From NCBI GenBank assembly GCA_973895155.1, contig OZ316891.1, forward strand, positions 5,117,708 to 5,181,707: 64,000 nt of DNA, given 5' to 3'. Under the pieces are notes generated by a model. That model was not told the DNA's origin, did no database searches, and saw nothing but the letters and a program-made list of their open reading frames with translations. Positions 4,873-53,100 of this stretch are shown piece by piece (position 1 is the stretch's first letter; the number at the start of each line of letters is the position of its first letter). Origin of the DNA: Marsupella aquatica (lineage: Eukaryota > Plantae > Marchantiophyta). The position numbers were made by a program, and so were the translations under genes.

Positions 4873-4918
4873 TTAGGCGGCGGGGCACGAAGGTATTGTG
4901 CTGGAAGTCGTCGCAGAC

Positions 4919-28201: not shown

Positions 28202-29964
28202 GGCCCTCCATATAGTGACCCCCTTGAAAATTAACCTGGGCGGATGTCATGTGTTGACACTCCAATATGGAGACTCCCTTCTTGCTATCCTTGTTGCTAT
28301 CTTGGCTTATTTGAATTGCTTACTAAATGTTCTTAATATGTCAGTTTGGTCTAGCTGATATGTATGCTTTGCATTGTTAACTTATATCAATTCTTTGGAC
28401 CCTTTTGATTAGTGTCGTCTTTGAATTATTTAGCATGTATATTAGGGTCATAAGTGGGCAATGCATGTGTATGCTTTTATATTCTGAATTTATCAATTTC
28501 TTTCAACCCATTTGATGTTTTCAGTCTCTCATTTTCTGTTTAGTATGATAGTCTTTGTTTTCATTTCTTGATTTTGAGAGACTGTCTTCTCTTTTCTCTA
28601 TATCTATTTAGAAATAATTTAATTCATTAAAGGCACTCCTCCTTCTGTTTGCATGAGAAGGATAGCCTCTTTTTAGTAGCATACAACTAAAATCCCCGCT
28701 AAAATCCAATCCATCCATGTACTAGTTTATATGTCCATTCTTCCTTAAAAAATTTCCCGTGCTTATGGGTTTTACACAATAGCTGTCACTAGCTTCAACA
28801 GTGAGCCCCCCTAAATACACAATGGGAAAGAAGGAAGGTACACTCAAGTTAGTGTACTTCTCTTTCACCTAGAAAGTATTGTACCTATAAGGTACACTCA
28901 AGTTAGTATACATCTCTTTCATTTGGGATGATTGTTGTTCTTTCACTAGGTCTTTGGTCCTTCAAGAATAACTGAAATGCATTTTGATAGGGACATTGAG
29001 GTCTCCAACAGGAAGTCAAAGTGGAGCCTGCTACATTTGATCACAAATCGCAGGGAGTAAGGTACAAGACAACATGTGGTCTGAAATGCATGCAATCTGT
29101 TTTCTACTCCTGTGTTTAAGTTTTGGTTGTCGATCAAGTATCAGTCTGTTTCTTTTGTGCATGCATTTGTTGTTTCTTATCCAACTGACAGAAGTGTGAC
29201 TGAGTTGCACATGTGATTTCCAGCCACTTGGGTATGAAAGCAATGGAAACGAGATCAGGTGAGATAAGGACCACTAGGTTCTAGTCATGCATAGGGAATG
29301 TATTGAAAGTTGCAATGAACGTGAGATTGGGTGACATATGGATGATAAGGTTTTGGTATACACAATCATCCTTATACTGCTCAGGCAGATAGCACTGTCT
29401 CACTTCAGATTTGTACATTGTTTTGTTGGTTTCTATGTGGATAATTTTGATGAAATAATGCGTGAGGTTTGGGAGTCTAAGGAACGATGCAGTGAGTGCT
29501 TTGACATATTAGGCCCCAGGTGAGTGCCAATTGATAGCTGAAGATTGGTCTGGTTTTACAGTAGAAGAACTATTAAAACCTTGTTGAATGACGTGTGGGA
29601 TAAAAATGATGTCACTTTGTATAGAAAGGAACTCACCTAGTATTCCTTTTGCTGTTCAGTTTATTTTACATGACTTGCGAGATCACATGCAGATCATGAA
29701 ATGTATTCTGCTTGCTTTGACTGAACAATATATAGCAAAGGCACTGGGCACAATCTGAAGATTCATGATATGTACATTGCCTTGTCAGTAGTGCAACATA
29801 TCCATAGTTGTCAACAAGTTGGTTACAATTGCTAGGTGCATGACAATGTTTGGAGGTACGTACATCTTGTAATGTGAAATTTGGAGCACTAAGTACTAAC
29901 ACTAAAGTTGTTTAATTTTAGTAGAATGTTGCTAGAGCAAGAAGATGAAGAGCATGGAATTTCT

Positions 29965-29978
29965 GGAGGGAGGGGGGG
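29965..29978 (+). other. Polypurine tract-like sequence preceding the putative host LTR
   Basis: GGAGGGAGGGGGGG, 4 nt before the inferred LTR start at 29983. Confidence 0.45.
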
Positions 29979-31646
29979 TCAGTATATGGAGAGGCATACA
30001 TTGCGTGCAACGTTTTAGGGTTTGGCCCCCCTAACTTATAAGTGAAAAATATTTTTTTGCAAAACCCTTTCTTTCTTTAAATTTTGCCATTTTTTACTAA
30101 AATATCCCTAAAACCTTTAAAGAAAACATTTTTTGTAATGAAATAGGCCTATGTGTTTTTTAAAGTCAACCTCAGGGGTCTCACTATATGGATGCCTCCC
30201 CATCCCCTATGACGTTTTTAGGCCTCGGACCCCCTAAAATGTAAGAAAAAATAAATTTTCAACCCCTATAAAGATGGAATATTCTTGGAATATTCTAAAA
30301 ATTTGGTTAGAAAGACCCTAATGTTCTTATAAGTCTCAAAATTGAATTTAAAAGACCCTATTGTTCTTTTGCAAAAATTCTTAAGTCTTCCCTTCAAACC
30401 AATAAAACAACCCTATCCTTTGTCGCACGTGATGTGCCATTTTTGTGGAAGTGAAATCCCCGAGAAGTCAACCAGTCAATAAAACATGCCCAATGTGTTA
30501 TTCCACAAAAAATTTGAAGTCTTCCGCCACACCCATTTAAATGGGCCTATACTTTGTCACATCACTAGTAGAAAACAATGTATTTTATGACCGAAACAAT
30601 GACTATTAATCAGGTCTTTTTAACAAAACAATGACGCAATCGTTCTCGTCTTTCCAGACGCGTCACAACGGACATTTTGGTCACGGTCCTTTTGGACAAA
30701 TGACGCTAAAAACATGTGGTCATTTCATACTATCCTAAATGACCATTTTTATGATATGGTCATAAATGTTGAACGGTCCAAAATGACGACACAAATCACC
30801 ATCGACGGTCAATTGCCGTTGACCGTCGATGGTCCCCGTACCCAATCACACAATGACATGTGGCAATCAAAAAACAAATAACATTGGTCATTTTGGACTT
30901 GTCCAAAATGATGTACATTATATAACAAATCAAATAGTGACACGTGGTTTAAAGAGGATTCACCATTTGGCAATATATTTGGGTCATTTTGGACGTGTCC
31001 AAAATGACTACGGTATAAACAAGTCATATTGAGACACGTGGTTCAATTGGGAGAAGACACGTAAAGATACACATTAGTCATTAATGACATGTCTTGAATG
31101 ACATAAAGTGAGTCATAGTGGACTTGTTTATAATGACCATGAGAAAGGTCATTGTATATGTCATTCTTTGAATCATTTAGTCTATGTCTTTAATGACCAG
31201 AGTTGAGTCATATTGGTCACAAAGATAGTTGTGGATAATGATCATTACATCAGTCATTCTAGCCAGTCATTTAGTCATTCTAGCCAGTCATTCAGACGAA
31301 GTATTCAATGATTTGGAGAAATTCAAATTTAAGTGATCATGATAGATAAAACTTCATGTCAATCAAAAATCATACATTACAAAGCCATTCAATAGATTTG
31401 CTGAATGAAAACTTAAAGCAACATTCGATATATATCACAAATCCAATTGATATTCATACAATATACCTTCATAAGTCTCACGATAAATATTGAACTCAAT
31501 GCAAATTTATGAAACAAAATTACATTGACATCAATAATATTAGATTGTCAATTGTTACAACCTGACATACCAATCATTCTGCATGTTTATAGAAAAACAG
31601 AGCTGTCATTCTATCATGTCTATTGTTTCTTGACAGAGTGCTATTT

Positions 31647-34600
31647 CTATTGCTTCTTAAGCAATCTAGAGTTCCATAGGGCATTCATCCCTTTCACATC
31701 AGATAATTTAGACTGGTTCTCCCCTGAATTGGCAAATGGCAATGCCACATCTACAAACACTTCAATCACACGCACTCGCAAGAAAGGGTTTTCAAAATCT
31801 GCACAATGAAACTTATCTTCTCCTGGCAGCCCTGTCACCTCACCTTCTGCGGCCACTATCATGGAATTGTCCACAACGCTCTTCATCTTCACCAAATCTC
31901 CTCTTGCAAACTGTGAACAACACATTTTGTTAAAAATGCAATAAACAGAAATTGAAAGATAGAAGAACACTCAAATCAAACACACATTTACCTTTGCAAC
32001 AGGGTTAGGAGACTGCATTGGTTTCTTCTGTGCAGGTGATGCATTTGCTGAGGATCCTTTCTTCCTTTTCTTCTTTCCCTTTCTAGTTGATGGAGTGTCA
32101 TCCTGCTCACTTGGAATGGGAGTTTCTTTTGGCAACTCAGATGATTCTGGGGTTATATTTGGTGTCAACTGAGTCGACTTGTCCTCTGGCAACTGAAAGG
32201 CATCTGAAATGGCTTCTTTGGGCAACTTAGATGGCAAAAGGTTCACTTCCAATTCAGTTTGCTTTAGAGTATTGTTAGCTATGTCAGTTGGTCTTCCCTG
32301 CGACACAGGAGGCTCCCCTAAAGATGCTATCATAAAACACACACAAAAGAAATGCATAAACAAACATGTATACACCAGCAACATGTAATCACACTAAAAA
32401 CATGCAAGAACATTATAAACATGCAATGACATATACACATCACAATAATTACATTGAATGGACAGTGTATACATGATAGAGAATTTTACCTTCATTATCG
32501 CCTGAAAAAGTAAGAGATCGCTTTCTACTACCTTGTTTGGTAGTTGTAGTCAACTTACTATGACTAGGCACAACTGTTGGAACTTGTACATTACTAGTGT
32601 GATGTGCCATCCACGTAGTCATCATGTTTGTCAACTCCCTCACAGTGCCTTTCAACTCAGCGACATCCAATTTCACAGCCCCAATGGCAGTGATCTCTTG
32701 TTTTGAATGTGGGGTCTATAAATGAACCACAAACCAACACAACATTCTCACTGTCAAACTTACAAACGACACAACACTCTGTCAAATGGAGAATGATGTA
32801 CAAATCAAATTGGTATGACAATACTCACAGCTGATCCATGTCTGTATCCTTGCCCCAGTAAGCTAGCACTTTTACCCTCCCCACTTGCCAATGATGGGCT
32901 CACCTTTGCTCCCACAAAACTACCAGTCTGACCTTCTGCACTTGCCAATGATGGGCTCATTGTCACCTTTGGCAATGAACCCTGACTACCATGGTTTTCT
33001 TTCAGGTCAGATATACCTGGGCTTGATCCTCTCTTCTGCTTCTGTTCAAACACACAATGAATGAGAAATCACAGAGTCTGTTTTCATCAAGATTCACAAA
33101 CAAGACAAAATTGATAGTGAAAATGATAGACAATTTACCATTCTCTTTGCTACTGCAGCATGCCCTCCCCTTCCAAAGTGAGAGGTATCTTGCACTCGTG
33201 CTCTTTTATCAGTCATCTGTTTACTCAAAGATATCAATGTTGGACTGGTAAAATGAGATACCAAAGCTACCCATTTCTTTGGATCAACACCAGATGGCCC
33301 AGGTTTGGTTGGATCCTCATTGCAAACTTTCTTCCAGTAAACATGCATTTTATGGCGCTCTCTCTTCAATATGCCACGACAATGACTCTGGAATTTGGTG
33401 TTAATAAATTCCCCACCCACATACTCCCACTCAGCTGCCATGTTATTCCACACTGTGGTTGTATGAACTTGTGGATGATCAGTCCATTTTGGCTTTGATA
33501 CATCAAAGACTCTGAGTACATAATTGCCACGAAGTTCCTCCAGCCAGTATTGTTTGTTGCCATCAGAATCATCAATATCATTGTCATAAATCTGCATTTC
33601 ACAGACAATGTCAGATCATAACTCTGGAATTTATGCAAAGTCCAGGTTTTATACACACAACAACAGAGAGGATCAGATTTGTCTAAATCTACATTCAAAA
33701 AAAGTACAATACTCACTTTAATGTGTTTGGGCACCTCTCCGCAATCCCTTCATTGTTTGGCAGTATTATCAAACTGCTTCTTAGCATGCCTTCGTTCCCT
33801 GCGCATCTCAGAGGCCCCGCCTGCAATGCACACACATGCATTCAATCAAAAAATATGTACATGATTGAAAAGTACAGCAAATGCACTTGCATATGCATGA
33901 CGAGCAGATTGTGTATTACCTGAAGATCCTCTGGAATGTAGTACATCAGATTGACCTGATCTGCCTTCAGATGCTGATGGAACCACTAAACAAACACACA
34001 ACACCAAAGCACTTCAATTAATTTCATTTCCAAGTAGAATATCAACTTCCAAACACACCTGAAAAGTAGAACAGTACAATCCACTCACTTTCATATAAGA
34101 GTCCAGTGTCTGGGTCTTTCCAACATCTCACCAGCCCCCCTCCACCAGGCCCAGTCTTCTTAGGACCACGATTTTGTTTCTGTACCTACATCATGGACAA
34201 TGTAAGCATATCAACATATAATTTGAAAAAGGGACAAGGATCCCTTCCTATTAGGATGATGAAGTTCAAGCATTACCTGTTGTTCACTCTTTGGTTCTGA
34301 CCCTCCAATGTCACAATCCTCAGTGTCATACCCAGAATGAGAACCATAGCCATCATCACCAAACTCTGCCATGTTCACCTTGGTAACTTCTGATAGTCTA
34401 GAGCTCCTCCTCTTTGGCAATGTTTCAGTTGAAGTACCTTTCACCAAAGCAGGCTTTCCTCTCTCTCGTTGTACATGTGTGGTTGGGCCTCTAAGGAACA
34501 ATTAAAGCAATCATCAACATACACCAATGCAGATCAAACATACATGCAAAATGAATCTACAACACCGTAACACTGTCTAGTACTTATGTACAGGATAAAT

Positions 34601-34840
34601 ACTAGTATGAGACCAATCTGGAATATGAAAACAGAAAAGGAACCTGACAACTCCATCTACTGAATCAAATTTGCAACAGACATATTAACACACACATCAG
34701 CTTGCAGTCTGGCCCCAGTCCTAGATCACGCATAATTCTGACATTATGCTCTATGTTCCGATTTTGGGCCTCCTCATAAGGATTCACAGAATGTGACAAC
34801 CCCTGCAATCTTCCTTTCACAGGCTGCATTCACCAACTGC
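31647..34840 (-). CDS. Multi-exon TnpA-like (Ptta/Tnp1 En/Spm) accessory transposase; integrity uncertain
   Basis: The exon at ~33138-33590 has P.GV....WVALVSHFTS...KRAR...SHFGRGG (Transposase_24-like). The last exon (~31647-31910) has VAAEGEV....KFH....FLRVRVIEV..DVALPF....KLSDVKG..ALW (Transposase_23/Tnp1-like). Several short GT-AG-bounded segments lie between. Exon model and 5' end are approximate. Confidence 0.7.
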
Positions 34841-34923
34841 ACAAATGGGTAAACCATTAGTCTGATTTCATATATAGTCCATACATGTAGTCCATCTATG
34901 GACTTCACACACCTAAAACCTAT

Positions 34924-37900
34924 TCACTGCTTATGCCTGCCCTTTCTTGCAGATCCCTCTGCATCTCTGCCTCGTTTGGGACCAGTCAATGGTCCTAGAT
35001 TTGCTCTAGACCTATAGGCCTTAGCCAATTCGATGTGTAATTTGACATTGTTTTCCATTGTATCATGGAAATCAAAGTCTATGTAATCACCTAACACCCT
35101 TGTGGACCTGGATTCTTTGTGGAGGATTGTTCTCCATGCTATCCCCTTCTCATTGGGGTGGAAGAAAACCTGCTCCACTTGCTTTGGGAAAATGTAATCC
35201 ATTTTCTTGGACACACCCAGTTCTCTATGGAAATTCACCTGCCAAAGACCAGACTCGAAATACCTCATACTGGCAGAGGATTTAGGAGTCCATGATGGAT
35301 CTGCCCATTTCCCTTTGAAAAGAATCACCTCTTTCCTCAAGCTGCCGTAATTCAGTACCAAGATATCTGTCAAGGCCCCTACATACTGTACAGATTCTTC
35401 TATGGTTGCACCAGACCTGTCCACTCGCTTCTCAGTGAATGTAGAAGCCATCCCAGAATCAAAAGTGCTGAAAGCACCAGAATCACAATCACTCAAACAC
35501 CCCAAGGATGGAATAGTCCTCCAATGGTGCCCATAGGCTCTGCATGCCCTATACAGTCGTGCCTTCAAACTAGGTGGTGTGGAGTATACAGATAGTAATG
35601 ACCGCTCAGACTCTTTCTCAAAATTATGGGTATTGACTAATGTTTGAAACCATTCCCTGAAAGGTGGCAATTCTTGGCAGTCAGCGGGAAATTCCACTGG
35701 TTTTCTTCGATTGGCAGGCTTCCTCATCCATTCCTTCCGGAAATCCACTCTTCGTTTGGTAACAGTCTCATTGGTAGCATCATATATCCTACATGGCAAC
35801 AACAACACTGAAGACATTAGTGCATGATCCACCATGAATATACAAACACAATGGGGCAACATAATTTAGGGTTTATGTACCTGTACCATGGAGCCAAGTG
35901 CTGTCTCTTCATTCTCCAATATATAATGATGCATGGCCATCATTTCAGACCAATCCAAAGTTATCGCCTTTGCAGCCCCTTCCAAAACAATGCCTGCAAC
36001 GCCAACATCCTCCTCCAACTCCCAGGTTCGTTTTCCCTCTCCCTTTGCATCAATCATGTATTCAGAAAGGAATCCCAAAGACTCATCTAATACATAGCCT
36101 TCAGCCATAGAAGCCTCTGGACGTGCCTTGTTTCGTACATAACCCTTCAATACCTTCAGGTTCCTCTCTATTGGGTACATCCATCTGCCTGTAACTGGGC
36201 CACACAAGTCTAATTCCTCCACTAGGTGAATCATTAAATGGGTCATGACATCAAAGAAGCTTGGTGGAAAATGGATTTCCAAAATGCAGAGAGTGAATGC
36301 AACATCCATCATCAAATTCTCATACATTGAAGGGTCCCACACCTTCGTACAGATCTGGCGATAGATATTGCTCACCCCAGCTATGGCCAAGCGAACCCCT
36401 TCATCAAGTAATCCCATTGTTGCCAGAGGGAGAATCTGTTGCATGAGTTGGTGGAAATCATGTGATTTCAACCCAGAGAGTTTCTTGGATTTTGTAACAC
36501 ACTTCGCCAAAGAACTTGAAAAACCAGTGGGCCCTTTCAAGGTCAATAACACCTCCAAGAACCTTGTTCTTTCCTTCTTGCTCAGGCAATATGGGGCTGG
36601 GGGCATCAACAATTTGTCATCGTTACGCTTGGGAGCTGGATTGGGTACAAGCCATAGGTGTTGGCGCACCTGTAAGAGCTTCATGTCTTCTCTCACAGAA
36701 GGAGTGTCCTTGGTCCCAATGATAGTGTGCACAATGTTGTGTGCAAGATTCTTCTCACAGTGCATGGGATCTAGACAATGGTTAATGAGTAGTTTCTGCA
36801 GTGGACACACAATTCAGAAATTAGGGCATTGAATACAACTTTTGACATCACTAGACAGTAGTTTGTGCAGTAGACACAATTCAGAAATTAGTGCATTGAA
36901 TACAACTATTACAAAATCTGGGCTACAGGAAGTATATGAAGAGAATATATTTCAAAGTCATATGAAGAGATTGCAGAAATTCATTGTAGTAGTATGGAGT
37001 CTTACATTCCAATAGGGCAACTTGTACAGACCAGTAGCCCTCTTCACTCCATGCACCTTTATAGGGCATTTCTCATCCTCAACCTTGGTTCCTCCCTTCT
37101 TCAAATATTCTGTTGTCTCGTCTCCCCACTTCTTTCTATCAGAGCTTGTCATTCTACACGGTGCAGGTCGACTCTCAATTGCACCATCAAAGTATTGTGC
37201 ACTGTCTGGTCTACGAAAAAGATGCCTTGCTGCTAACCATCGACGGTGGCCACTGTACTCTAATTTCTGCAAGTGCTTAGAACCACATGCCACACATTTT
37301 GGCCCATAGATGACACATCCTTTGTATCCAGAGTGTTGTTGTCCAGATATTAAACCATATGCAGGGTAATCATTGATTGTCCACAATAGCACAGCCCTAA
37401 GGTTGAAGTGTTGAGACAATCCTGGGCGTGGCAATTTGTCAAAGCAGGGCACTCCTTTCTTCCACAACAGCTCTAGCTCCTCATAGAATGGGCCCAATAT
37501 TATGTCCAGTTGTTCCTCTGTTACTGAATCAGGTCCTGGAATCAGCATAGCTAGCATGACAAAGAACTTCTTGGTGGTAAGCCAAGGAGGTAAGTTGTAA
37601 TTCAACAACAGTATTGGCCAGCATACCATGCTCCCCCATCAAAGACAACAATGCATTCACTCCTTTGTTTGAGAATCCATGGCCATGACAGATGTTCAGC
37701 AGAAGCAACATGAATGACACAACATCTATTTTGCTGCCTGGGAACAAAGGTTGCATTGCTGCATCTAAAGATAACTGTGCAGGATCAGTCTCCACAGGAG
37801 TTTCAGAGGTTTCAAGGGGGTTTACAGGATGGGCACCTTCTTCACTCTCATCATCCCCAAGTACAAAATCCAAGTCAAAATGGTCCTGATCATCTAGTTC

Positions 37901-38436
37901 ATGTTCAGGGGATTCTTCACTGGTTCTCAGCAACGTTTCTTCTAGTAGAGCCCTGATATGTTCTTCGACATCTATAGTTGGATGTTCTTGAACATCCACA
38001 GTTGGATACTCTGGAACATCCACAGTTGGATACTCTGGAACGTCTACAAATAAATGTTCTTCAACATCTACAGTTGGTTGTTGTGCACAGGTTGCCTGCT
38101 GAAGGTTTGCTACCTCAATGCCTCAGGGCCATGTTGTGACATGTAGTCAGCACCCCACTCTTCATCAGAAGAGTCTTGTCCCTCTCCCACCCACACTCGA
38201 CATGCAGGGTACTGACCATGTTTAATAAGGTGCAGTCTAGCAGTATTCCGATTAGTCCTATAATTCCCTTTGCAGTTCACACAAGGGCAGTACATCTTAT
38301 GGTCCCCACTCTTGTGGTAGGCCTTCTATTCTCGAACCCACAAAGCATCATCACGATGTTGTACTCTAGCTGGATGGAAGAGCGGCAACTTTGGAGTTCT
38401 ACCCACACCTAACATATTCTGTGGCAATTGTGCCAT
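34924..38436 (-). pseudogene. TnpD-type CACTA transposase (Transpos_assoc, Transposase_21, DUF4218, DUF4216), disrupted
   Basis: Motifs CPCVNC...HLIKHG; WPILLLNYNLPPW...LIPGP; LRAVLLWTINDYPAYGLISG; HCLDPMHCEKN; LSGLKSHDFH; FPPSFFDVMTHLMIHL; RWMYPIER; YVGALTDILVLNY..VILFKGKW; QVEQVFF. Introns at 37005-36796 and ~35880-35789. Lesions: stop at 38326-38328, frameshifts at ~38115 and ~35900, and a large internal deletion with frameshift at ~37630. Confidence 0.92.
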
Positions 38437-39020
38437 GCTAGCTTGATTGAAATTGTATTCAAACTATGATTTTCAAACTGAATCAGTGTGACATGCATAC
38501 AAAATTGGGCCTACCGTCACAGTTGTACAACCGATGCCAACCACAGTCCAATTGCTCAAACCCACAGAGCCCAATTTCTCAAATCCACTGTAGTAGGGCA
38601 CCTTCTCCTTCTTGCATACAAATAGAGCATCACATACAGTGTCATCAGAATGATACTATGAACGTAAATCTCTGTGCCTTCATCATTTCCAGTATTTGTT
38701 TGCCTATTAGGAATGTGAGCAGACAGGTCTGGAATAAGTAACGTTTGTGACATCAGTGACAAATTTACAAGTGAAGTTTAGACATCACACTCAAAGCACA
38801 TGCATGAAAATCGGAATCCTACCCTGGAAAAGATAGTAAAGTTGATTTCTCAAAATTAATTGCCTCAATCCGCAATGCACTGTCGTAGAGTGTGTATACA
38901 TGAGGAGTTCATCAAACTGCATATAAATAGTCCACATGTTTTAGCACTCTGAAAATTGTTTAAGTCCACGTGAAACCATCAAAAAGCTCTATCTCAAGTT
39001 TGTGTTCCATCCAGCCTCAA

Positions 39021-39680
39021 TCAAATCCAAGATATGTGGCTCCTAGCAGGAGTGCCTAGTGTAGGGTCAATGTCATGGTTAGGACAGTAAAACATCCCCT
39101 TCTTGGGCTGCCCATGTGCTGAGTGATCCCAAATTGTTCGATCATGGGCAAATCCCCTCTGCTGGATAAACAACAGGTAGTCCTTGTGCCATGCCTTAGG
39201 ACACCTCATGCACTGAACCAAAAAGCCATTAGCCCCATCATTGGGCCCCTGTCCACAAGTAAGACAAATATGGAGTCCACATGATGCTGTGCCAGGAACC
39301 AAACACTACCGACAGTAAAACCGGGCACAGAGAGGGTCTGGACATTTTCTTACCTCTTCACCAATTTTTCCAGACACATGGCACTTAAAGCAAGAATGTT
39401 CATCATTCTTGCAATCAACACAAAGCCATTCTCCAACATGGCCATCAGCCAGGGATATAGTTGGGCATAGCCATTGCTGACCCAAAGGACAGGAAACATT
39501 CTTATGGAAATGTCGGTGGCAAGGCCCATCACAAACAATGAGATCCCCTCCCTCATCACAAATCGCACATACATGTGGACTATTTTGGTTAATCTCAATG
39601 TCTGAATATAAGGCCAATTGAGGTGCTTGAGAGGATTCACCTCTGCAACGATTCATGGCCTTCTGCTTATTGCGAGCCAT
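39021..39680 (-). pseudogene. Stand-alone EDM2-type composite PHD finger gene inside the CACTA (219 codons, one in-frame stop)
   Basis: ATG at 39680, TGA at 39021-39023, single in-frame TAG at 39306-39308. Translation: VCAICDEGGDLIVCDGPCHRHFH...WLCVDCKNDEHSCFKC...VRKCPDPLCARFYCR*C...CGLHICLTC...QCMRCPKAWHKD...IWD...FYCPNHDIDPTLGTPARSHISW. This is colinear with the EDM2 PHD region as recalled, including its distinctive C-terminal YC-x2-H-(E/D)ID...TP-x-R-x-H tail. Confidence 0.85.
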
Positions 39681-40770
39681 GGTCCTGCACACTCAGACCC
39701 TACATCAGATTGTGAAGCAAGAAGGAATAACAGGGTGCAACATGACACAAAAGAATGAGGGTGCAACATAAAATATGACATGTAACCACAAGGGAGCAGC
39801 ATAAACCAATGCTTTATGGATGGCAAAGCACTAGGACTGAGCAACACAAATAACCTTGGCCTATGATTGGAAGCAATCACAAATATTGCAACCTGTATGC
39901 CTTCGCCTTCTGTCCAGCAGTGCTCACTCACCCTGCCTTTTTTAAATCTGTAAGGGCAACATAGAACAAATAGCAATTGAGTTTCAGCAAAGCATTGGTT
40001 CTCAAGTTTTAAAATGGACAGACTTGTTTCATTGTCTGCCTTGTGCGCATCAGGCTAAGACCGATCAGGGCAAATAATTTATATATTCAAGTAGTGAGAG
40101 CTACAAAATTTGTTGGGACAGTTTTCTAGTTCTGATCCTGCTGCGCTTTATATACAGCAACAACCTGAATTCGATTTTTATAGACCAGCTTTTCACCACG
40201 GCTACGACTTCAAAACAATCACACAATGAAATCATGTAGAGGCATGAAGTAAACATGGGTCAAGGCTGTGAATAAAGTTCTCACCTTGTCCCTGCATAGC
40301 ATCGGGAAATTCTACCCAGAGTCTAAAGCGGGAGATACCCAGGCGATGATCCATCCCAAGTTGCGTCAGGTCTAGGAAGGTTAGTACTCTCCTAATGTGA
40401 CAAGACTTCTTCTGGATCATTCTCTGTAACAAAATTTATTTGTTTGAAGTAAACGACTGAAATCATTTGATGGCAAATTCTCCATTTGGACTCTGTGGAC
40501 AGTGGGGTATAATTTTGTAAGACATTCCGGCCCACTGAACACAACGAACACAACAAACATTGCCAATGAAACATTCATTGCCAAACTCCATGAACTTACT
40601 AGCAGATTCTATGTTCAATTAGGCAACATTAAACAGACCAGCCTTCCACTCAGGCAGAAACAATCCTGGCCCACTCAAGCATTGATTAGGGTCGATCTTG
40701 TCCTTCCCGTGTACGCCTCAATGCTTATTGTATGCCGTTCTAACAACATTCTTCATTCGTTTACTCAAAG

Positions 40771-40955
40771 GATTCTATTATTGGACGAGAGCATCACGAA
40801 AGGAGCAGATATAAGTAAAGTTGGTGGTAGCTGATGATGAATGATCGACTGATGTTATAATCCAAGGCAATTACGAACAAATCGATCGTCTCCGACAAGA
40901 ATTGGGTCTCATGGAAAAGGGCATGGTTTATGTGAAGGGACTGTTAGAAAAATAG
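40771..40955 (+). pseudogene. CCB1: Captured terminal exon of host CCB1 (cofactor assembly of cytochrome b6f, DUF3529)
   Basis: After an AG acceptor at 40769-40770 the frame reads FYYWTRASRKEQI*VKLVVADDE*STDVIIQGNYEQIDRLRQELGLMEKGMVYVKGLLEK*. This matches the recalled CCB1 C-terminus (YYW.RASRKE.I.VK...VQG...EKGMVYVKG). It has two internal stops. Confidence 0.85.
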
Positions 40956-43299
40956 GTTCTCATAATTTTGGTGACAAGTTCAGGCAGAAGGTGGCTTTTA
41001 GAATTATAGATTTATCCACTTCAACTTATGCACACCACATGAGAGGGGACGATTGTCTAAGGTCGTGCAGAACTCCTGCCAAGGACATGAGCACGTTTTT
41101 GTTCAATTCGGTGTTGGAACTCAAGCAGTACCATTCAGAGGGAAAATGACAATCAAACAATTGATAGGGACTGTCGGAAATCAACAGCAGACAGAATGGA
41201 AAACTCGGAAGAACTGGTGCAACCTCGAGCAATCACAGAGAGAGCTCTAGAGAGGGACCGAGAGGTTGAGGTAATAGTCTCGTGGCAATCGAAGGGTTCG
41301 GAACTTAACATAGCAGACACAAAAAATGTATGCTATGCAGGAGGAGAAACAGAGCAATAGAGCAACATAGCAAGAAGGCAGGGGTAGCATGGCAAAAGGA
41401 AAGAGTAAATTGAAACTATGAAACATAGCCAGATTGAAGCAGAAGAAGAGCACAACCTCTTGCAGCTCCCGTTTCTCCTCCCGTAGCTCCCGATGTAACC
41501 TCCCGCAGCTCCCGCAGCACGCTGACGAACGGTGAGACCTCATGCAGCTCTTCCCGCAGATCCTGCCTGCTGTGACCTCTCGAAGCTCCACCAATGTGAC
41601 CTCCCGCAGCTCCACCACTCCTCTGTAGCTTAGTTATCCCCAATCATAGCTTGCAGCTCCTTCCCAATGAACCCTAAACCACTCCTCGCAGCCGAGCTCG
41701 AGCTTATGACCCGTAGGTTATCACCAATCACAGCTTGTCGCCCTTCGTTGAGGTAGCCTCCCACAGCTCCTTCGTAATGTATTGTCCCAAGTCTCCTCCT
41801 CACCCACTGGTTATCATCGATCGCACATCGTCGCCCTTTGCAGCTTTCTGAGACATATAGCTCCAACGTTAACGCCAAATGCTCCGCAATGTTGCGCGAC
41901 ACTGCAACAATGGATTGGAGCTCTTCCGTGGTAGTAGCTCCCAAGTCCTACCGGCTCACCCTAAGCTTTCCTACTCCCCTGACCGCGCGCAGCACCCTGA
42001 TACAGTTTGTGGGAAGAAACGGAGTGCGCACTCCACAAAGCTGTCTCAACTCGCAACTGAACTCAAATGCGCCCCGCACTCCATGCACATTGCCCACCGC
42101 CACATTCCTTTGATGAAAACGCGCACCTCAACCACAAAAACCCTACATTTCACAACTTGTGCTCGACTCGACATTTGCCGTTGTGCACCTCCAATGCAGA
42201 TTTGTCGACCACTTTTGTTCCGAGGGCCTACTACAAGAACGAGGGAATTGGAGCACAATGTTGATTGTATGATCCAGGGTGTGATCTCAGCCGTTGGCAC
42301 TTGTGTAGGTGCCAAAAATCTAATACCTCTCCACTAGGTTGGACAATTTAATACCTCTCCACTAGGTTATAAACTTAATACCTCTCCATTATTGGTTTGC
42401 AAAAAACCCAATGAAGGTTATGGTATATCCAATTTAAAGAGAGCCCTAAAGGTCATGGCTGTTTGTGTAGGTGCCAACAAGAATGTTAAGGACGCATGTT
42501 ATATATAAAAAATGATGCCCGCAATATAAAAGGTCCTTTTGGACCAAGGGAAAACCTTGGTTTTCTAACTTGGTGCTCTAGAGTTATGGCTCAAAATCAC
42601 ATTGACCCTAAACCCATAACCCGCCCCTCATTTAAACAAATTAATCCTTCATGGGAGGTGAGGGTGTTGTGGATTACATTAGTGTAATTAACTATGTACC
42701 GGCCATGGTTTTTGAGTGATAGGTTATGTCTGCAAAAATATATGCATGCATGAACACAATTTTGGACTACCTTATTAGTCTCACCATATGATAGTGATAC
42801 TCATCCAAATGTTAGCATTTAATAGCTTTCCACTCGTGACTCAATTGAGAGAAACCTCGAGAGAAACCCTCAGTCATGACTCAAGCACATTTATAGGGCA
42901 ACTATTAGTTTCATATAGACATATGTATAGTATGTGTACTTTTGTACATGCCCTTGCCAACACCCTCGTCTAGGGCCCACTTCACGGGCCCCTTACATGC
43001 TACATGACCACTACATATGAGGCTATGTTGTCTAAGAGTTTTTGAGAGCATTACACCAAAGCATTAACAAGTGAGCCTTCCCATGACTATATGACCTCCA
43101 ATATGCCAACATTAATGGTTTCCAATATGACAGCGTGAGTGACCCCATGTTTAGTCCTCAGATTGAAGCACCATTTAATTCAAATGACCCAATGAACTCC
43201 CTTGTACCTCCAAAGAGAACCCCCCAATAGCCTTTGTAAAGACCACATTTCCAGTCATTTGGTACTTCTGACTTCTAGTATGACAACCAAGATTACCCT

Positions 43300-46200
43300 A
43301 ATTTGAGGTGTTTTCATTAATGACCACATATGCAGTCAATTGTTCAAATGACCTCCAATATGACTACCAAGATGACCCTTATTGTAGTCATTGGCATTAA
43401 TGACAGATATTATGTGAAAATGACCCAATAAAGAGTCTCTCAGAGTGCCCCCTTACAATTCCTTTGAAATTTAATAGAATATATCCAAAATCCAAATGTC
43501 AGCACAAACATGACATAGTTATATAGAAGGACATAGTCTTCCACTAGTATTGCACTATATCTCTCTTGGAGAGACAAAAAAATAATTTGTTTGCCTTTGG
43601 AACGAATGGTATGCATGCATGGTGATACTTTTGGCAAATCACTCCAAAGTTGTATGACTTGGGAGTGATTTTCCCCAATGTTGGATCATCCCTTAAGTAA
43701 TTGCAAAAACATGGCTCCAAAGTGCTCATGGTGCAACTAGTGGTTGGAGAATAGTGGGTATAGTAGGACCTCGCACCTTGTGGAGTGGTTGCCACCTTCA
43801 TGTAGGGACCCATGGCACACTAGGGCCACATTAAGCTCCTAGACCCAAAAGGGTCATTTTTTATGGTCCATAATGACACCATGAGGGACCTCTATCATGA
43901 CCCCATATGGAGTCATTTGGCACAAATGACTTCCAAACGGACGGCCAAAATGACCCTTACTGCAGTCTTTGGCATTAATGACACACTATTCCTCCAAAAT
44001 GACCCAATGAAGATTACAACACCTACTCACAATGCCCCGACACTATTCATATGCAAAATGGAGTATTCCCCATCCAAATACCGGCACAAACATGACACAA
44101 TTACATCACAAGATGACAACCTTCCATTGGTGTTGCGCTACTTCTTGGAGAGACAAAAAAATGGCTCCATTTGCGTTTGGATACGGTGGTATGCATCCAT
44201 GGTGACACTTTTGGAAAATCACTCCAAAGTCGTATGACTTGGGAGTGATTTCCCCAAGGGTGCATCATGCATTGATAAACGCAAAAACATGTGTCCAAAG
44301 TGTTTATGTCGCAACTAGTGGTTGGACAATGATGAGTATAGTGTCCCGCACCTAGTGGAGAATTTCTCACCTCTATGTGGGGCCACATGGCACTCTAGGG
44401 CCCACCTTCAACCCCTAGCCCCAAATTGGTCATTTGTGCTTCTATTTAATGACTGCATGGGGGACCACACAAATGACCACAAGTCTAGTCACTTGACTTA
44501 TATGACATACCATATGACAATATTAATGACTCTACTTGTAGTCATTGGCATTATGACACAAATTTGTCTAAAAATGACCCAATAAAGATTACACTACATC
44601 CTTCATTGCCCCGTCACTATTCATTTGCAAAATAGAATATTCCCCATCCAAACAAAGGCACAAACATGACACAATTACATGGAAGGATGATAGTCTTCCA
44701 TTGGTGTTGCGCTACTTCGTGCAGAAACAAAAAATGGCTTCATTTCCCTTTGGATAGGATGGTATGCATCAATGGTGACACTTTTGGCAAATCACTCCAA
44801 AGTTGTATGACTTGGGAGTGATTTCCCCAAGATTGTATCATCCCTTAAGTAAACACAGAAATGAGACCAAAGTGCTAATGATGCAACTAGTGGTTGGAGA
44901 ATCATAAATATAGTATTTGGCATATAGTGGAGGGGTTGCGAGCTCTATGTGGGGCTACATGGCACTCTAGCGCCGACCTCCAGCCCTTAGCCCCAAATTG
45001 GTCATTCAGGCTTGTCTTCAATGACTGCACTAGGGACCCACCAAATGACAACAAGTCCAGTCATTTGACTTATATGACATCCTAAATGACAATTTCAACG
45101 ACCCTATTTGTAGTCATTGGCACTTATGACACAACTTTGCGCAAAAATGACCCAATGGGGGCCATAGTACCTCCAAAGAGAGCCCGCTTTAGATTCCTTG
45201 GAAGGTCTGAATATTCCTCTTCTCTAAACCCGCACCCACACCATACCAGGAAGCACGACTCCCTTGCCCATTCCATTGGTGCATCACTACCTCTTGGGGA
45301 ACCAAAAAACAACTTTTATTTGCCTTTGGATGGGATGGTATACATCCATGGTTGCACTTTTGGAAAATCACTCCAAAGTCGTACGACTTGGGAGTGATTT
45401 CCCCAAAGGTGCATCATGCCTTAAGTAAACGCAAAAACATGTGTCCAAAGTGTTTATGTCGCAACTAGTGGTTGGACAATGATGAGTATAGTGTCCCGCA
45501 CCTAGTGGAGGGGTTCTCACCTCTATGTGGGGCCCCATGGCACTCTAGGGCCCACCTCAAGCCCCTAGCCCCAAACTGGTCATTTGTGCTTTTCCTTAAT
45601 GACTGCATAAGGGACCCCTCAAATGACCACAAATCCAGTCATTAGACTGATATGACACTCCATATGACAGTTTTAATGACCCTACTTTTAGTCATTGGCA
45701 TTTATGACGGGCCATTGCTCACATATGACCCAATAAAGGCCCTAGTACCTCCAACTAGAGCCAACTCTAGATTCCTTGCAAGATTGGAATATTCCTCTTT
45801 GCTAAACCCGCACCCACACCATACTGAGAAGCACGACTCCCTTGCCCATTCCATTGGTGCATCACTACCTCTTGGGGAACCAAAAAACAACTTTTATTTG
45901 CCTTTGGATGTGATGGTATGCATGCATGGTGACACTTTTGGAAAATCACTCCAAAGTCATACTACTTGGGAGTGATTTCCCCAAAGGTGCATCATGCCTT
46001 AAGTAAACGCAAAAACATGTGTCCAAAGTGTTTATGTCGCAACTAGTGGTTGGACAATGATGAGTATAGTGTCCCGCACCTAGTGGAGGGGTTCTCACCT
46101 CTATGTGGGGCCCCATTGCACTCTAGGGCCCATCTCCAGCCCCTAGCCCCAAACTGGTCATTTGTGCTTGTGTTTAATGATTGCATGAGGGACCACACAA

Positions 46201-46690
46201 ATGACCACAAGTCTCGTCACTTGACTGATATGACATACCATATGACAGTTTAATGACTCTACTTGTAGTCATTGGCATTATGACACAAATTTGTCTAAAA
46301 ATGACCCAATAAAGATTACACTACATCCTTCATTGCCCTGTCACTATTCATTTGCAAAATAGAATATTCCCCATCCAAACAAAGGCACAAACATGACACA
46401 ATTACAACAAAGGATGACAACCTTCCATTGGTATTGCCCTACTTCTTGGAGAGACAAAAAAGTTTCATTTGCCTTTGGATACGATAGTATGCGCGCATCT
46501 ATATATGGTGACAGTTCTGGAAAATCACTCCAAAGGTGTATGACTTGGGAGTGATTTCCCCAAAGCTAGGTGCATCATGCCTAAAGTAAATGCAAGACAT
46601 GTGTTCAAATTGCTAATCGGCAACTAGTGGGAGGACAATGATGAGTATTGTGTCCCGCACTTAGTGGAAGGGTTATCAACCATATCAATG
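43300..46690. repeat. Tandem array of ~577-bp units x ~6 inside the CACTA
   Basis: ATGACCCAAT anchors at ~43421, 43999, 44574, 45147, 45724 and 46301. CACTCCAAAG..TA(T/C)GACTTGGGAGTG-type anchors at ~43640, 44220, 44793, 45369, 45947 and 46527. Confidence 0.95.
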
Positions 46691-46769
46691 ACTCTACAAT
46701 TATGACCGGTGTCTGGAATGACTATTGAGTATTTTAATTTTCATATCTCTTGGGTTCTTTAATGACTCT

Positions 46770-47200
46770 ATAAATAGTCATTTATGCAATAAGTCCATAA
46801 TGACTGTATGTTATTGTAAACATTGAATATCGTAATTTTTAGATTGACCCTATATTTAGTCATTTATGCGACAAGTCCATAATGACAGTATGTTATTGTA
46901 AACACCGATATATTCTAATTTCAAGAATGACTATGGAATTAGTCATTTATATGAGAGAAGTCCATAATGACAGTATGTTCTTGTAAACACTGATATGTCC
47001 TAATTTCAAGATTGACCCTAGAGTTAGTCATTTATGAGAGAAGTCCATAATGACGGTATGTTCTTGTAAACATTGATATGTCCTAATTTCAAGATTGACC
47101 CTAGAGTTAGTCATTTATGGGAGGAGTCCATAATGACAATATGTTGTTGTAAACACTGATATATTCTTATTTTCAGATTGACCCTATATTTTGTCATTTA
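46770..47200. repeat. ~83-bp subterminal tandem repeat x ~5
   Basis: AGTCCATAATGAC..TATGTT.TTGTAAACA at ~46791, 46873, 46958, 47041 and 47124. Confidence 0.9.
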
Positions 47201-50182
47201 ACACCGTTGGTTAAAATGACGGTAATACATTTTTTGTCATTTATCACCGTTGTCCAAAATGACCTAAATAGATTTTTGGTCATTTCTATCATTGTCTAGA
47301 GTGACTATAATGTTGCTAAACATTGATTTATCATTGTTGTTATTATTTGCGTCATTTAAGACACGTGTCTAAATTGACCATTTAGGAAAATTGGGTCATT
47401 TTGGTCGCATCAGTCATTACAGACATTATACAAAATGACGCAAAAGTTAACATTTTGTCATTTCAGTCTATTGGTCATTGTGGATAGTCATCCCCTGTCA
47501 TTCTTTTTGTGTCATTAGAAATTTTGGTCATTTATTCATCTCTGTCATTGGGTGATTGGTCATAAAGGGCCCTGTTTTCTTCTAGTGCATGTGATGTGCC
47601 ACTTCTGTGGAAGTGACCTCCCACCTGAGCTTGTTGTCCTAAAAACTTCAAAATTCATTTTTTTTCTAAATGTCACACAGGTTTTGTCTGAACCCGACAC
47701 TTTTGAGTGGGGTTTGTGTCAAAAGAGGTGCACCTGCAGCAAAATTACACCCTGGTGAGGACCCTAGTGTAATTAGGTGATTATTCTAAAAAGAGAGTTA
47801 AAGTATCAAAATCATAATTTTTTTAAATTTTTAAGTTTTTTATAAGGCCCTTTAAGCAAAATTAAGTTAGTATAAGCTCAAATGGGTAAGGGTACCATTG
47901 GAAGACGTCAAGGCCACCCTGGTTTTCACATAGTAAGCGTCAAGACGGCAAGAAGTTGAAAGGAGCTTCAAAAATGAGGTGACGGCCTGGACGGCCTTCT
48001 CACGAAGACGGCGCCGGCTTGGACGGCTTCTACACAGGGACGGCCGGGACAGCACCCATTTTTCACAAGGACGGCCGACTCCTTCCGCGCCGGTCCGCGT
48101 GAAAACTTGTGGACGTCTTGGACGGCCTCCACGTAGGGACATCCGGGACGTCCACCCCGTCACAACCTAACTTGACGTCCGCGCCGGCCTGATCACACTT
48201 TTCTACTTTTCTTCAAGGGACGTCCATGGCGGCCGACAGTAGGGCGTGAGCTTCGACCCTCAATGCTTACTTGTTAGACCACCATTCGAGCTCGTTTCAC
48301 TTGCTATAGCAGCGCAACTGCCTAGAGAATGTTCACCATGATTCCGAACTGCCATTGATAAGATGTTGAGGGGTATTGGGTCATCGATGCTCTCTGATTT
48401 CTTGGAATTGAGGAAATTTCAATTTTGAGAGCTTCGCCTGATCAGAACTCCTTCATTTTCATCTCTTTCCAGTTCATTTTTTCTCCCATAGCAGCACAAC
48501 TACCTTAGATCCCTGAGATTTCATTCTTGAGCCTCAATGCTTAGCCATTTTTAGGAGGAGAGCTCTCGAGCCTTCTCACATTTTCTGAGCTATGGCCACC
48601 AGAAGCTTACCAATTAGTAAGGCCATTAGGGTGACCTTACCCCCAGGTCCTAAGGCTTACTTTAGACTCCTTAGTAACCTGGTAGAGATGGGCTTGAGTT
48701 CCTTACTTTTTCTTCCTTGGGATATGGTGCATGGGTCCATCATTGCCAATTTTCTTTGTCCACCCCAAGCTGGCGCTTTCCGGAGTTCTACTAGAGGTTC
48801 AGCTGATGTGTGTACCACCGCCGTTATTTCTGAGGTGTACCAGTTGAGCTAGGAGGGAGAGAGACTGATCTCTGTTGGGGAGGACTTGACTGTCCCCTAC
48901 TTTAGAGGTACCAAGAACCGGAGGTCTGGTTGGAAGATTGATCAGTGCAGGAACCGAGAGTTAGCTCATCTACTCCGATTCCTTGTACCTATCTTTCATC
49001 CGACCAAACCCACCAGGGCTATGGTTTACTTGACCAGCTCTATCATCGTTTCATGGACCGGCAAGAGGAAGATCAATTGTGCCCTAGCTCTTTCGGAGGT
49101 GATCGCCAAGCAGGTGGCTGTCCTGTCTACTACCGATGATACATATCTAACACCCTACTTGGCGCACATTTACATTTCAAGAGGCTGCTTGTTATCAGTG
49201 GAGCTGAGCGATTGGAGGAGGAGAGCGAGACACTTTGAGCTCCCTCAGCCAGAGTTAGCAAGAGAGTTGACTCCACCGCCTACGACATCTCCGAGACCCC
49301 CTCTAGTGGAGCAGACGTCAGCACCGGATCTACCAGGGATGACTTCTCCCTCTTTCGTTGCTTCCACTTCTTACCCATCATGGACTGATTTTGTTGGTGA
49401 TGCTGAGCGACTAGCTAGTGTGGCTGGTTTCAACCAGCATTTGGTAGATGAGGCCACTAGACTCTTGAGTTGTACCCCTCTGCAGTTACTTGACTGTATT
49501 CGTGCTTTGCTTTCCGAGTCTCGTACCGCCCCACGTACCCCCTCATGTTTCACCCCTTGCACCTTCACCACAGCCTGATCACCCTATGGATGTGGATGAG
49601 CCGGAGGTATCTATTGCTGATCCTTCACTCCCTCCTCCATCCTCACCTACACCCCTCTACCTGATCCCCTTCTTTCCCCTATTCTTGATTCCCCTATCCC
49701 TCCTACATTTACACTTGAGCATCCTCCATCTCCTACCCTTGAGCCTGAGCCTAAGAGTGTAGAGTCTCCCAGTGTACCATTTATAGCTCCTACTCCTTTG
49801 ATGTCTCAGCCTCCTATTGTCTCTTCTGTTGCCAACATTGAGCCTCTTTTTGTCTTTCCCGCCCAGTTTGATAGGATGATTACGTCACTCATCGACGCAC
49901 GCAATCCTCTTGCACCTCCTTTACCTCCACTTATGTTTGGTCGTGAGTCTTTCCCTTTTTCACACACCTACGACATGGTTCTGATTTCTCGTGGTATTCT
50001 ATGGCTACCTATCGACAAGCTGAGACTACCCACGATTGAGACTCCTGACCTTTGGAGTTGGGTTTATCATTGTAGAAAGGTCATTGCACCTTTCCCTCTT
50101 CCAGCTCCAGACATTCCATGGCCATCGGATTACTTTGTTTGGATCGGATCGGATCGGATGGACATCCCATCCGGAAGACCAG

Positions 50183-53100
50183 TGTCGCGCCCCTAACCCG
50201 GGCCTTAAATCCAATTTAGTTCCATGGGGCGACCTTGACCACCAGTAGGGGTGAGGGTTCGGGCGAGGAGGTGTGTAGTGGCCTCGATTGACCCTAAGTC
50301 GGGCTAAGGCAATATACTTACTGGTATAACATTCACGCAACTCGTACTAGTCATAGGTATATTTGTTTTCCACCACTGGAATATTCCCACAGTTAGTGAC
50401 TCGGACTAACTCCCGGCTTGGGGCTTTCAAGCCATCGATGCGACAAAACCTTGTGACATGCAATGGGTGGCAATCCGTACCATTAGTTTGCACCTGGTAC
50501 GTCCCTTGAAATGGCGCCTTTGCCCAGACAAAGCATACACACAACACCAGTTACTTGCGAAAATATTAGAGGGAAAAGACTACATTTACTCAGCAAAGAA
50601 TCAGTTTACATAGTTGACTCGACTTCTAAGGGGGTCAGCGGGCCCAACGGCAGTTGATGCCCAGTCTCTATGAGGCCCCGCCCTGCACTTGCCCAGCAAG
50701 CTTGACTTTGGCTCTCACTCCTTGGTGCGCTCTGACCCTGCTCAGGCCGGGACTCCCCGTGCCTCGCCTTTCCTTACGCTGAGATAACTAAGCCTTCTCC
50801 CCTTCCCACAACGGAAGGGAGAGCCTAAATACTACGGTGGTGGAAAGGAACCGAAAGATACTACCTTCCGGGGTAATGCCTACTGACTAACTACCCTCTG
50901 ACTAGCCGGCCGCACTCCTCTGACCGGTTGACTGTTGACGACAAGGGCGCTAACCAAAATGGCAGCAGCTAAGTCTACTGACCAAAATCTAGTCCGTTGA
51001 TGGACTCGATCCTACGTTGGCTGATCCTAACTGATCCGGTCCTAATTCTTCCTACTGTGCCGCTAATCGACACCTAATGATAGCTATTCTGTCGTTACGC
51101 CTAACCAGAAGATGCTGCTGACTCAACCGCTTTGCGTGACGCCTGCTTCCTCCCTTCGCTAACCACCCCTTACGTGCGAGCCGTGGTCGGACCAGGGTTT
51201 GTCCCTCTGTCGGGGCGAGACCTCTAGCCGCCTTGATCAGAGGTGGGCCCAAGTCTTCACCGCTGGAGGACAAGCAGGGTAATGCAGTCCTGTAAGGCCT
51301 TGTTGTCTCGCACCGCCTCCTCAGCCTTGTTGGCAGCTTCATCGGCCTCTGTCTGGAGCCGTGCTACCTCCAGGTTGAGCTGGTTAATGGAGTCACGATG
51401 GGTCTGGTTCTGCGTCAACAATTTATCCCGTTCAGCGGAGAGACTACCTACCTACTGAGCTGTTTGTAGGAATTGGTTGTTGAGGTCGGTGAGGCTGGTA
51501 ACCCGGGCCGAGGATTCCGAGCGCAACTGAAGCACGGTATCATCCATCTTCTTGAGATCCGCTTGCGCCCTGCTTAACTCCTGGGTTAGTCCGTCCCGAT
51601 GTTCAACGGTGCGGACTAACTCCTCACGGTGGGTAGTGGCCTCCTCCTCGAGGTGTTCTACCAGCATTTGGAGGCGCCCGATCTCATTCCCCTTTGCCAT
51701 GAGTTCTTCTTCCAAGCGGCTTACGATCCGTGGTTGGTGCTCTAACATGAAGAAGGCTGGTTGAAAGTACGCCGAGACTTGTTGTCCGATGTACGTCGCC
51801 AGCTCCCTTGATAGAGTCTGACTAAACTTCTGGACCAGGTCGTAGGCCATGGTCCCTGGGGCTACTTGGTAGTCCTCCATCCTCTCGGGTACCGGTGGTT
51901 CCTCGGGCGGGGCAACAAGCTCCTTCGTAGTCTGCGCTGGGGAGGGGAAGGTTTCTTCAAGTGGTGGAGGGATTGGAGGTGGTTGTACTGGGGGTAGCGG
52001 AGGCTCGACGGAAGGGGGCGGCGGAATTTCAACCAGGGGAGGTGACGGAGTATTAGTCGGGGCTTCCGGCTTGGGGTTTTCCCGAGGCGAGGTAGTCCGC
52101 TCATTTGGGGTAGCCTCCTTCGTAGCGGGGGTGACATTAGTCGGAGCTGAGGTGGCCATATTCTTTCCCCTGGCCTCCCGCCGTGCTTTGTACCAGGCAA
52201 GGATGATGGCGATATGACTTCCCAGGTAAGTCTTCCCCCGATAGCCATACCTCCCTGAGCCCGCTTAAGCTCTCCCGAGAACCTTCGGTAAAAGAATTGG
52301 GCCCAGTTCCGCCGTTTGTATTGTTCCACGGGCATGATCGTGCAGAGGGAGATCTCGGATCGTGGCTCAATCATGTGTAGGGTAGTCCATATGAAGTTAA
52401 GCCGCTCCATGCAAATTAAGTTGGTGCACGACCCCTGCTTGTATCCGTTGTTTGTCTTACCTTCGGGTTTGAAGTGCCGAGGTGTATACTCCTTATCCCA
52501 AATTCGGAGTTCAACCGGCACCGGCCCGATTGGCAGGCAGAAGATCTGTGCTAACCAATGCTCCGTGAGTGATAAGGTCTGCCCTAAAACCTTAGTGGTC
52601 GATGCGTCGGTGTTGAAATTGGAGATGAACTCATAAATCTCCTTTGGCCCGGCCGCGCACGGTCTCCATAGCAAGTGAGCAAACTGCTCCAACTGATGCT
52701 CCTTGAGATAGTCCGCGTGGTCGAGTTTCTTGATCGCGATCCAGACTACCTCGGGAATGCAAATTACCTGTAATAAGTTAGACTTGGGATTATCCGGGGG
52801 CCGTCCAAGGGGCCGTCGGGTCTGGTTGGCCGGGGGGTTTGCCGGGGCAGGTGCAGGAGCGGCGTTGGTTCGCGTTGTCGAATCGGGGGCCGGTGTCGTT
52901 CTTGCCCACTTACGAGAACGCTGCTCGAGATGCGGACTAACTCGCTCGGAACCCGAAGAACACTCGGTGTTGTCCACGGGACGGGCTTGGGACCGGTTTG
53001 GAGGTATGCCGGTGGTCATCGGTTGAGGCGTTGGTGGTGTCGGTGTAGCCATATCCCAGTTGAAGGCGTTGGAGCTTTCCCCGAGGAACATAAGATTACG

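Follow-up and report, generated by a model that had tools for sequence, protein, structure and literature searches.

The CACTA element and its surroundings

The window, that is, the whole 64,000-nucleotide stretch of Marsupella aquatica DNA analyzed here, contains a transposable element of 17,025 bp spanning 30563-47587. Its terminal inverted repeats (TIRs), CACTAGTAGAAAACA / CACTAGAAGAAAACA at 30563 and 47587, start with CACTA and are bounded on both flanks by the target duplication CAT. The principal features of the element, in window coordinates, are:

30560-30577: CAT target duplication (30560-30562) and CACTA TIR at the 3' end of the element, one of an inverted pair
31647-34501, minus strand: ORF fragments in the part that would be expected to hold a TnpA-like gene, covered in 4/4 sequencing runs
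34924-38436, minus strand: TnpD transposase (Pfam), broken in this copy by an in-frame stop, with indels relative to other copies
39021-39680, minus strand: stand-alone EDM2/NSD-type triple-PHD ORF, intronless, 219 codons, broken in this copy
39027-39575, minus strand: composite PHD module, codons 36-218, with a His-to-Cys change in PHD2, a 7-residue linker and no acidic residue before the first cysteine
39177-39179, minus strand: C168Y, which removes a zinc ligand of PHD3 and is private to this copy
39306-39308, minus strand: premature TAG at codon 125 (Q125*), private to this copy, with CAG in the others
39651-39677, minus strand: H3-like motif in a tail predicted to be disordered, codons 2-10, ARNKQKAMN here and ARTKQKAYK in the homologue P0002
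39681-39730, minus strand: pyrimidine-rich tract and, 4 nt upstream of the ATG, an acceptor-like TGCAG, a splice acceptor predicted from sequence only
43319-46678: about six units of ~576 bp repeated in tandem, with 75-86% similarity, within the 5' end of the element
46761-47296: subterminal tandem repeats of 83 bp and 43 bp
47573-47590: CACTA TIR at the 5' end of the element and CAT target duplication (47588-47590), at the empty-site joint

In contigs from runs X3 and X6, which represent further copies of the flanking repeat, only 5 letters separate 30558 from 47592, and 17,033 - 5 = 17,028, which is the length of the element plus one copy of the target. The 3-bp target duplication, this fit in length, the CACTA TIRs and the presence of TnpD together identify the element as CACTA/EnSpm. 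An earlier note on this DNA had placed the PHD ORF inside CACTA TIRs, and the CAT flanks and the empty-site joint bear this out. The repeat surrounding the element occupies 29800-30562 and 47588-48400, and its empty form exists in other copies of the repeat.

Pfam searches recovered the Transpos_assoc, Transposase_21, DUF4218 and DUF4216 domains in TnpD, whose likely ATG at 38436 lies 584 bp beyond the stop of the PHD ORF on the same strand, close to the 0.6 kb estimated earlier. TnpD is damaged by an in-frame stop at 38326-38328 and by frame breaks, with indels relative to other copies at 35897 and 38112. In the region of the expected TnpA-like gene (31647-34501) none of the 7 fragments searched matched a Pfam family.

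The ~576-bp units of the 5' array contain a palindromic sub-repeat and are depleted in CpG (o/e 0.27) and CHG (o/e 0.32); their number differs between contigs of other copies, and the array recalls the target arrays of VANC. Over 40357-42219, also in the 5' region, contig depth falls far below that of the element genes in 4/4 runs, from which subfamilies of the element may differ in promoter and leader. CpG is kept in this region (o/e 0.68 over 40000-42300).

Outside the element, 4877-7600 holds a host gene for an ABCG-type transporter (ABC2_membrane, Pfam), and 63242-63895 contains what we take to be the start of a host gene for a probable amino-acid transporter, the fragment having no Pfam match. 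An intronless GT31 galactosyltransferase ORF lies at 22346-23545 on the plus strand, and the five best of its 120 listed matches are from liverworts (Calypogeia 64%, Marchantia 61%, Riccia 60%), none of these three genera giving a close match; its flowering-plant relatives usually have introns. Two opposed groups of ORFs at 48853-53400 (241-512 aa; no Pfam match in the 2 tested) are probably parts of another mobile element, and a 476-bp direct duplication of 98% identity is found at 3310-4263.

A stand-alone EDM2-type PHD module

The PHD ORF is, as had been described, an intronless frame of 219 codons with its own ATG, running from 39680 to 39021 on the minus strand. With the premature stop read as X, Pfam detects in order an NSD-like PHD1 (E 2.5e-4), PHD_NSD (E 2.8e-6) and PHDvar_NSD (E 2e-5), and the best sequence matches among solved structures are the PHD regions of NSD3 (E 4.9e-10) and NSD2 (E 1.4e-7). 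A search of the Atlas returned only leads below 0.9, to NSD-like PHD clusters. The intact homologue P0002 aligns with residues 598-811 of the Marchantia EDM2 P0011 at 32% identity (E 1e-28), and this alignment takes in the C-terminal tail YC..H.ID..L.TP.R.HI.W. Together with the Pfam matches and the 25 conserved Cys/His columns described below, it upholds the earlier assignment to an EDM2-type PHD module with its C-terminal tail. No homology to a DNA-binding domain was seen, Pfam giving PHD families only. We also considered a reading of the ORF as an alternative terminal exon and rejected it, as 0/6 common poly(A)-signal hexamers occur between its stop and TnpD. The present copy is inactivated, as had been stated, by Q125* and C168Y in the PHD ORF, and its TnpD is broken too.

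Intact copies elsewhere

Other copies of the element were judged from contigs of public sequencing runs aligned to it. Codon 125 (at 39308), a Gln also in P0002, encodes Gln in 5/5 runs, at 99.7-100% of depth (X2 7840.6/7840.6; X3 37783/37888; X5 53.5/53.5; X1 701.2/701.2; X6 325.8/325.8); the five runs represent 4 studies and 3 organism codes, or 3 studies when that of the top run is left out. C168Y is absent from all four runs checked (X1, X2, X3, X5). One contig of 1,204 nt (depth 701) covers the entire PHD ORF with no indel inside it and no stop among the 10 differences listed of its 17. The ORF is therefore not confined to the present copy, and it is intact in others.

Long contigs of low divergence have a similar depth over the PHD ORF and over TnpD (701 vs 771-888 in X1; 245 vs 237-298 in X6), although depth does not equal copy number and the runs were themselves found using this region. 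Such similarity fits the PHD ORF being a regular part of the element family. No contig among the runs bridges the PHD ORF and TnpD, and linkage in the other copies is read from this depth. RNA runs make up 0/8 of the matching runs, a count with no bearing on expression.

Within the ORF, 9/16 listed differences are synonymous, where a share of 0.21-0.28 would be expected (p 0.002-0.016), or 9/12 without the 4 differences private to this copy; the tally takes in the listed differences, with 93 more over a 1.3-kb stretch, and is a hint of constraint and not a dN/dS estimate.

A family of short homologues

An initial homologue search yielded stand-alone proteins in 3/8 candidates, at 52-81% identity. 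When 1.84 billion proteins were searched without a filter, 349 matches were obtained; the top five were stand-alone proteins of 166-245 aa that ranked above every long EDM2. A profile search found stand-alone homologues in 17/168 candidates. The 17 full-length stand-alone homologues measure 187-245 aa and share 29-80% mutual identity (median 41%), and their identity to 12 host modules is 24-37%. Their zinc-binding framework is deeply conserved: of 25 conserved Cys/His columns, 18 are present in 17/17 homologues, 6 in 16/17 and 1 in 15/17. The family bears marks that set it apart from host modules, namely a Cys in PHD2 in 16/17 members where 11/12 hosts have His, and a linker of 7 residues as against 15-31 in the hosts aligned. 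Its proteins also share an end, stopping at, or just past, an HI.W-type motif. Among the best 150 of the 349 matches no protein longer than 245 aa combines the Cys mark with the 7-residue linker, although the pattern used failed on some rows.

The absence of the N-terminal region and methyltransferase-like domain of EDM2, which the earlier note had pointed out, extends to the family, since its 17 full-length members have only 187-245 aa. Its description of the architecture as domain-only holds in part: the stop does lie at the end of the domain, but the protein is not purely domain, as a conserved N-terminal tail of ~30 residues was found.

Many further family matches are truncated or frameshifted, and 0/14 family clusters examined carry an organism name from an annotated genome; these two observations fit copies of transposons. 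The transposon context itself is known for the subfamily in the window. For the distant homologues, a locus search of JGI metagenomes gave 0/74 candidate stretches; another based on P0157 gave 1/48, a 19-residue match in a marine contig that we judged spurious; and in viral contigs 1/21 candidate stretches matched, with no PHD ORF at the match.

Origin and maintenance of the gene

For phylogenetic analysis, rows were chosen from 151 extracted modules and from family members added later; outgroup rows were called "basal" or "NSD-like" according to tree position and similarity. In a tree of 44 rows, 15/15 stand-alone rows group together as a single clade (100/100) with a stem of 1.16, outside the sampled host EDM2 clades, and a tree of 70 rows again unites them (13/13). 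The gene thus does not nest beside host EDM2, but forms a separate, long-stemmed clade. We conclude that it derives from the EDM2 PHD module and is a derivative of EDM2, not an orthologue. As to its sister group, AU tests rejected neither a liverwort EDM2 paralogue (p 0.343) nor liverwort EDM2 itself (p 0.162), so either could be the donor. The EDM2 paralogue clade (100/99) comprises P0012, P0013, P0014, P0018, P0023 and P0025, whose proteins end shortly after the PHD module; the five members identified are from liverworts, and the clade includes Mp4g03050, a 280-aa stand-alone Marchantia gene.

Taken together, the 25 Cys/His columns, the shared marks and the single clade outside the hosts make it very probable that the PHD ORF is an old gene of this CACTA family maintained by selection. 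This sustains the earlier proposal of a maintained transposon gene over a fresh Pack-type capture: there are intact copies, a family spanning 29-80% identity, a long stem and no remnants of introns. A neutral, decaying Pack-CACTA capture of an EDM2 fragment would agree with the broken state of this copy, and CACTA elements do capture host fragments (PMC13317346). However, we consider it very improbable, since the zinc ligands are deeply conserved, the family shares a clean stop and sits on a long stem, synonymous differences are in excess, and identity to hosts is just 24-37%. It is also quite improbable that the family is one of bryophyte host genes, a single member of which was acquired and amplified by this CACTA lineage. 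Marchantia does have a stand-alone PHD gene of its own (P0018), and genomic context is known for the subfamily in the window only; yet P0018 groups in the tree with the host paralogue clade, outside this family, and both the decay of many members and the lack of organism names from annotated genomes among the 14 clusters speak against host genes.

Histone reading compared with EDM2

An Asp or Glu within the four residues before the first PHD cysteine is present in 96/101 long host proteins as against 0/18 family members. By analogy with the structures of AIRE and BHC80, we take this acidic position to be one that contacts H3K4. The acidic stretch C..[DE][DE]GG[DE]L after the first cysteine is mostly kept in the family. 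The loss of the pre-cysteine acid and the remodelling of PHD2 imply that the specificity of the family may differ from that of EDM2, and histone reading by its module may be altered or lost. The fold matches are H3-binding PZP modules and NSD PHD5-C5HCH, and are partial (TM to query 0.20-0.29).

In published work, H3K9me2 is among the marks bound by the PHD fingers of EDM2, and across heterochromatic sequence the AAE complex (ASI1-AIPP1-EDM2) shifts polyadenylation towards distal sites (PMC7472560, PMC7529245, PMC10241880, PMC3632883). Where transposon sequence carries H3K9me2, host EDM2 promotes its read-through (PMC7472560, PMC7529245, PMC10241880). In light of the sequence differences above, transfer of the H3K9me2 specificity of EDM2 to this family appears unsafe.

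An H3-like N-terminal tail

The conserved N-terminal tail bears a candidate histone mimic, which did not figure in the earlier note and is the most informative clue to mechanism. We used as the reference ARTKQTARK, which we take to be residues 1-9 of H3; ARTKQKAYK, which follows the initiator Met in P0002, matches it at 7/9 positions. The pattern [AST]RxK occurs in 22/29 family leaders, 20 of which have a small residue (Ala or Ser) at position 7; Lys or Arg stands at position 8 in 15 of the 22 and at position 9 in 14. The motif directly follows Met in 11/22 motif leaders, its spacing to the PHD module is kept at 27-44 residues, and it is missing or not recovered in 6/28 leaders. An AlphaFold model of P0002 (alignment of 55 rows) has a mean pLDDT of 86, with the PHD module mostly above 90; residues 1-28 are almost all below 50, hence predicted to be disordered, and in this monomer model the tail is not docked on the PHD.

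When each leader was compared with its own shuffles, 12/29 family leaders were better at p <0.05 versus 6/101 host leaders. As basic tails score well by composition alone, we ranked the true H3 order among its permutations: over 28 family leaders, which are related and not independent rows, it ranks 8 of 22,680. The rank is 14 without the subclade in which the motif was first sighted, 3 with one row per branch, and 31 in the subclade with extended starts. The host control, consisting of 134 EDM2-search matches, showed no H3-order signal, 60% and 6.5% of permutations scoring as high.

In liverworts, Selaginella and Mesotaenium, several full-length proteins of the EDM2 type (P0011, P0012, P0013, P0014, P0015, P0026 and P0033) start with MAR[TV], and most EDM2-like proteins of the seed-plant type start with an acidic stretch resembling MASSDDE. 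The MAR[TV] start of the hosts is possibly an ancestral short H3-like start.

These observations bear on a different reading, in which the gene is maintained but its tail is a nuclear import signal or a basic nucleic-acid-binding arm, and the PHD a scaffold that no longer reads histones. The motif is rich in Lys and Arg, with Pro at position 3 (Thr3 in H3) in 9/22 motif leaders; the pre-cysteine acid is lost in 18/18 family members; a comparable basic stretch, RPKMKAS, occurs in P0018, the stand-alone PHD protein of Marchantia that groups with the host paralogues; and the MAR start, found in 15/116 long host matches (Marchantia, Riccia, Calypogeia, Selaginella and Mesotaenium included), may simply be inherited. 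Nevertheless, it is residue order and not composition alone that fits H3, including the small residue at position 7, and the spacing from tail to PHD is kept, on which grounds we regard this reading as rather improbable.

Proposed role

We give about an even chance that the PHD product serves as a chromatin decoy or adaptor and thereby favours transcription of the element in spite of host silencing. Under this proposal, expression of the PHD gene would start from the element's own 5' leader and use the predicted acceptor immediately upstream of the ATG. The triple PHD, once folded, would attach to chromatin or to proteins of chromatin, and the exposed H3-like tail could engage either the PHD of the same protein or host factors that write or read the H3 tail (H3K9 methyltransferases and readers of the PHD or chromo type). 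Host machinery would in this way be occupied or diverted, the net effect being an element kept transcribable; occupation rather than catalysis is suggested by the lack of the methyltransferase-like and N-terminal domains of EDM2. More tentatively, counter-silencing might have two parts, an EDM2-derived reader on the element's chromatin and a true H3 tail mimic that diverts writers and readers of H3K4 and H3K9; we view this as possible but doubtful.

Alternatively, the protein could be an integration-targeting factor, its PHD tethering the TnpD/TnpA complex to marked chromatin and steering insertion with silencing unaffected. The position of the PHD ORF directly upstream of TnpD is in keeping with such a role, as is the presence of PHD fingers in Rehavkus transposases (PMC6446971), and this copy does sit in a repeat whose empty form exists. 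Yet a single insertion site says nothing on preference, the PHD is not fused to the transposase, and targeting alone does not explain the conserved H3-like tail, so that we hold this role to be unlikely.

Should the two-part reading with a true H3 mimic be correct, the element would be an instance of histone mimicry by a transposon, made out of its host's factor for heterochromatin read-through. The product is small, its gene has no introns and intact natural versions exist, so that the idea can be tested directly in Marchantia. The family also supplies a minimal form of the EDM2 module that occurs in nature, and our sequence and fold searches found no solved structure of that module.

Comparison with known systems

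The closest relatives are EDM2/ELP1 of the AAE complex and Marchantia Mp1g03210 (P0012, which is without the methyltransferase-like part), with which the family shares a homologous PHD module and C-terminal tail, the NSD-like Pfam families and the 25 conserved Cys/His columns. Its members differ from these proteins in size (187-245 aa vs about 700-1,800), in the PHD2 Cys, the 7-residue linker, the H3-like tail and an intronless gene located in a transposon, and in lacking the pre-cysteine acid. The PHD cassettes of NSD1/2/3 furnish the best solved-structure sequence matches; unlike these proteins, the family is without SET or PWWP domains, and its C-terminal tail is of the EDM2 type.

Histone-mimic motifs occur also in G9a and influenza NS1, and histone mimicry is a tactic known from viruses. 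SetDB1, a chromatin protein, likewise has a short motif resembling the H3 tail within a disordered segment (bioRxiv 10.1101/2025.01.21.634156). For SetDB1 mimicry has been shown biochemically, whereas the putative mimic described here is read from sequence alone, is N-terminal, spans the equivalents of both K4 and K9, and is encoded by a transposon. In Rehavkus, a PHD finger lies within the transposase of animal elements, in contrast to the separate EDM2-type triple module of this plant CACTA element (PMC6446971).

Among transposon-encoded proteins, VANC of VANDAL and TnpA of Spm/CACTA are likewise accessory genes of plant DNA transposons, with tandem arrays in non-coding parts. Both counter silencing, recognising DNA motifs and bringing about demethylation (PMC5735166; bioRxiv 10.64898/2026.08.24.746577), and the origin of TnpA has been placed in the DNA-binding domain of the transposase itself (bioRxiv 10.64898/2026.08.24.746577). 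Like them, the PHD gene is encoded in the element and conserved in the family, its context being that of this subfamily. It differs in its origin from a host chromatin reader and in having no recognised DNA-binding domain, and anti-silencing, demonstrated for VANC and TnpA, is putative here.

A CACTA-borne EDM2-type PHD gene was not found described in open full texts, which cover few subscription papers or Repbase reports. The word PHD is absent from the main text of a survey of 962 Spm proteins (bioRxiv 10.64898/2026.08.24.746577), and likewise from that of a gene-capture review (PMC13317346) and an atlas of Arabidopsis transposon products (PMC13547354). Thus, transposon accessory chromatin factors are a known class, and what appears to be new is the origin from a host reader and the possible histone mimic. 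The plant counter-silencing factors VANC, TnpA and the AtMu1 transposase recognise DNA motifs; a conserved gene derived from a host reader and bearing an H3-like tail would represent a second route, via the histone code.
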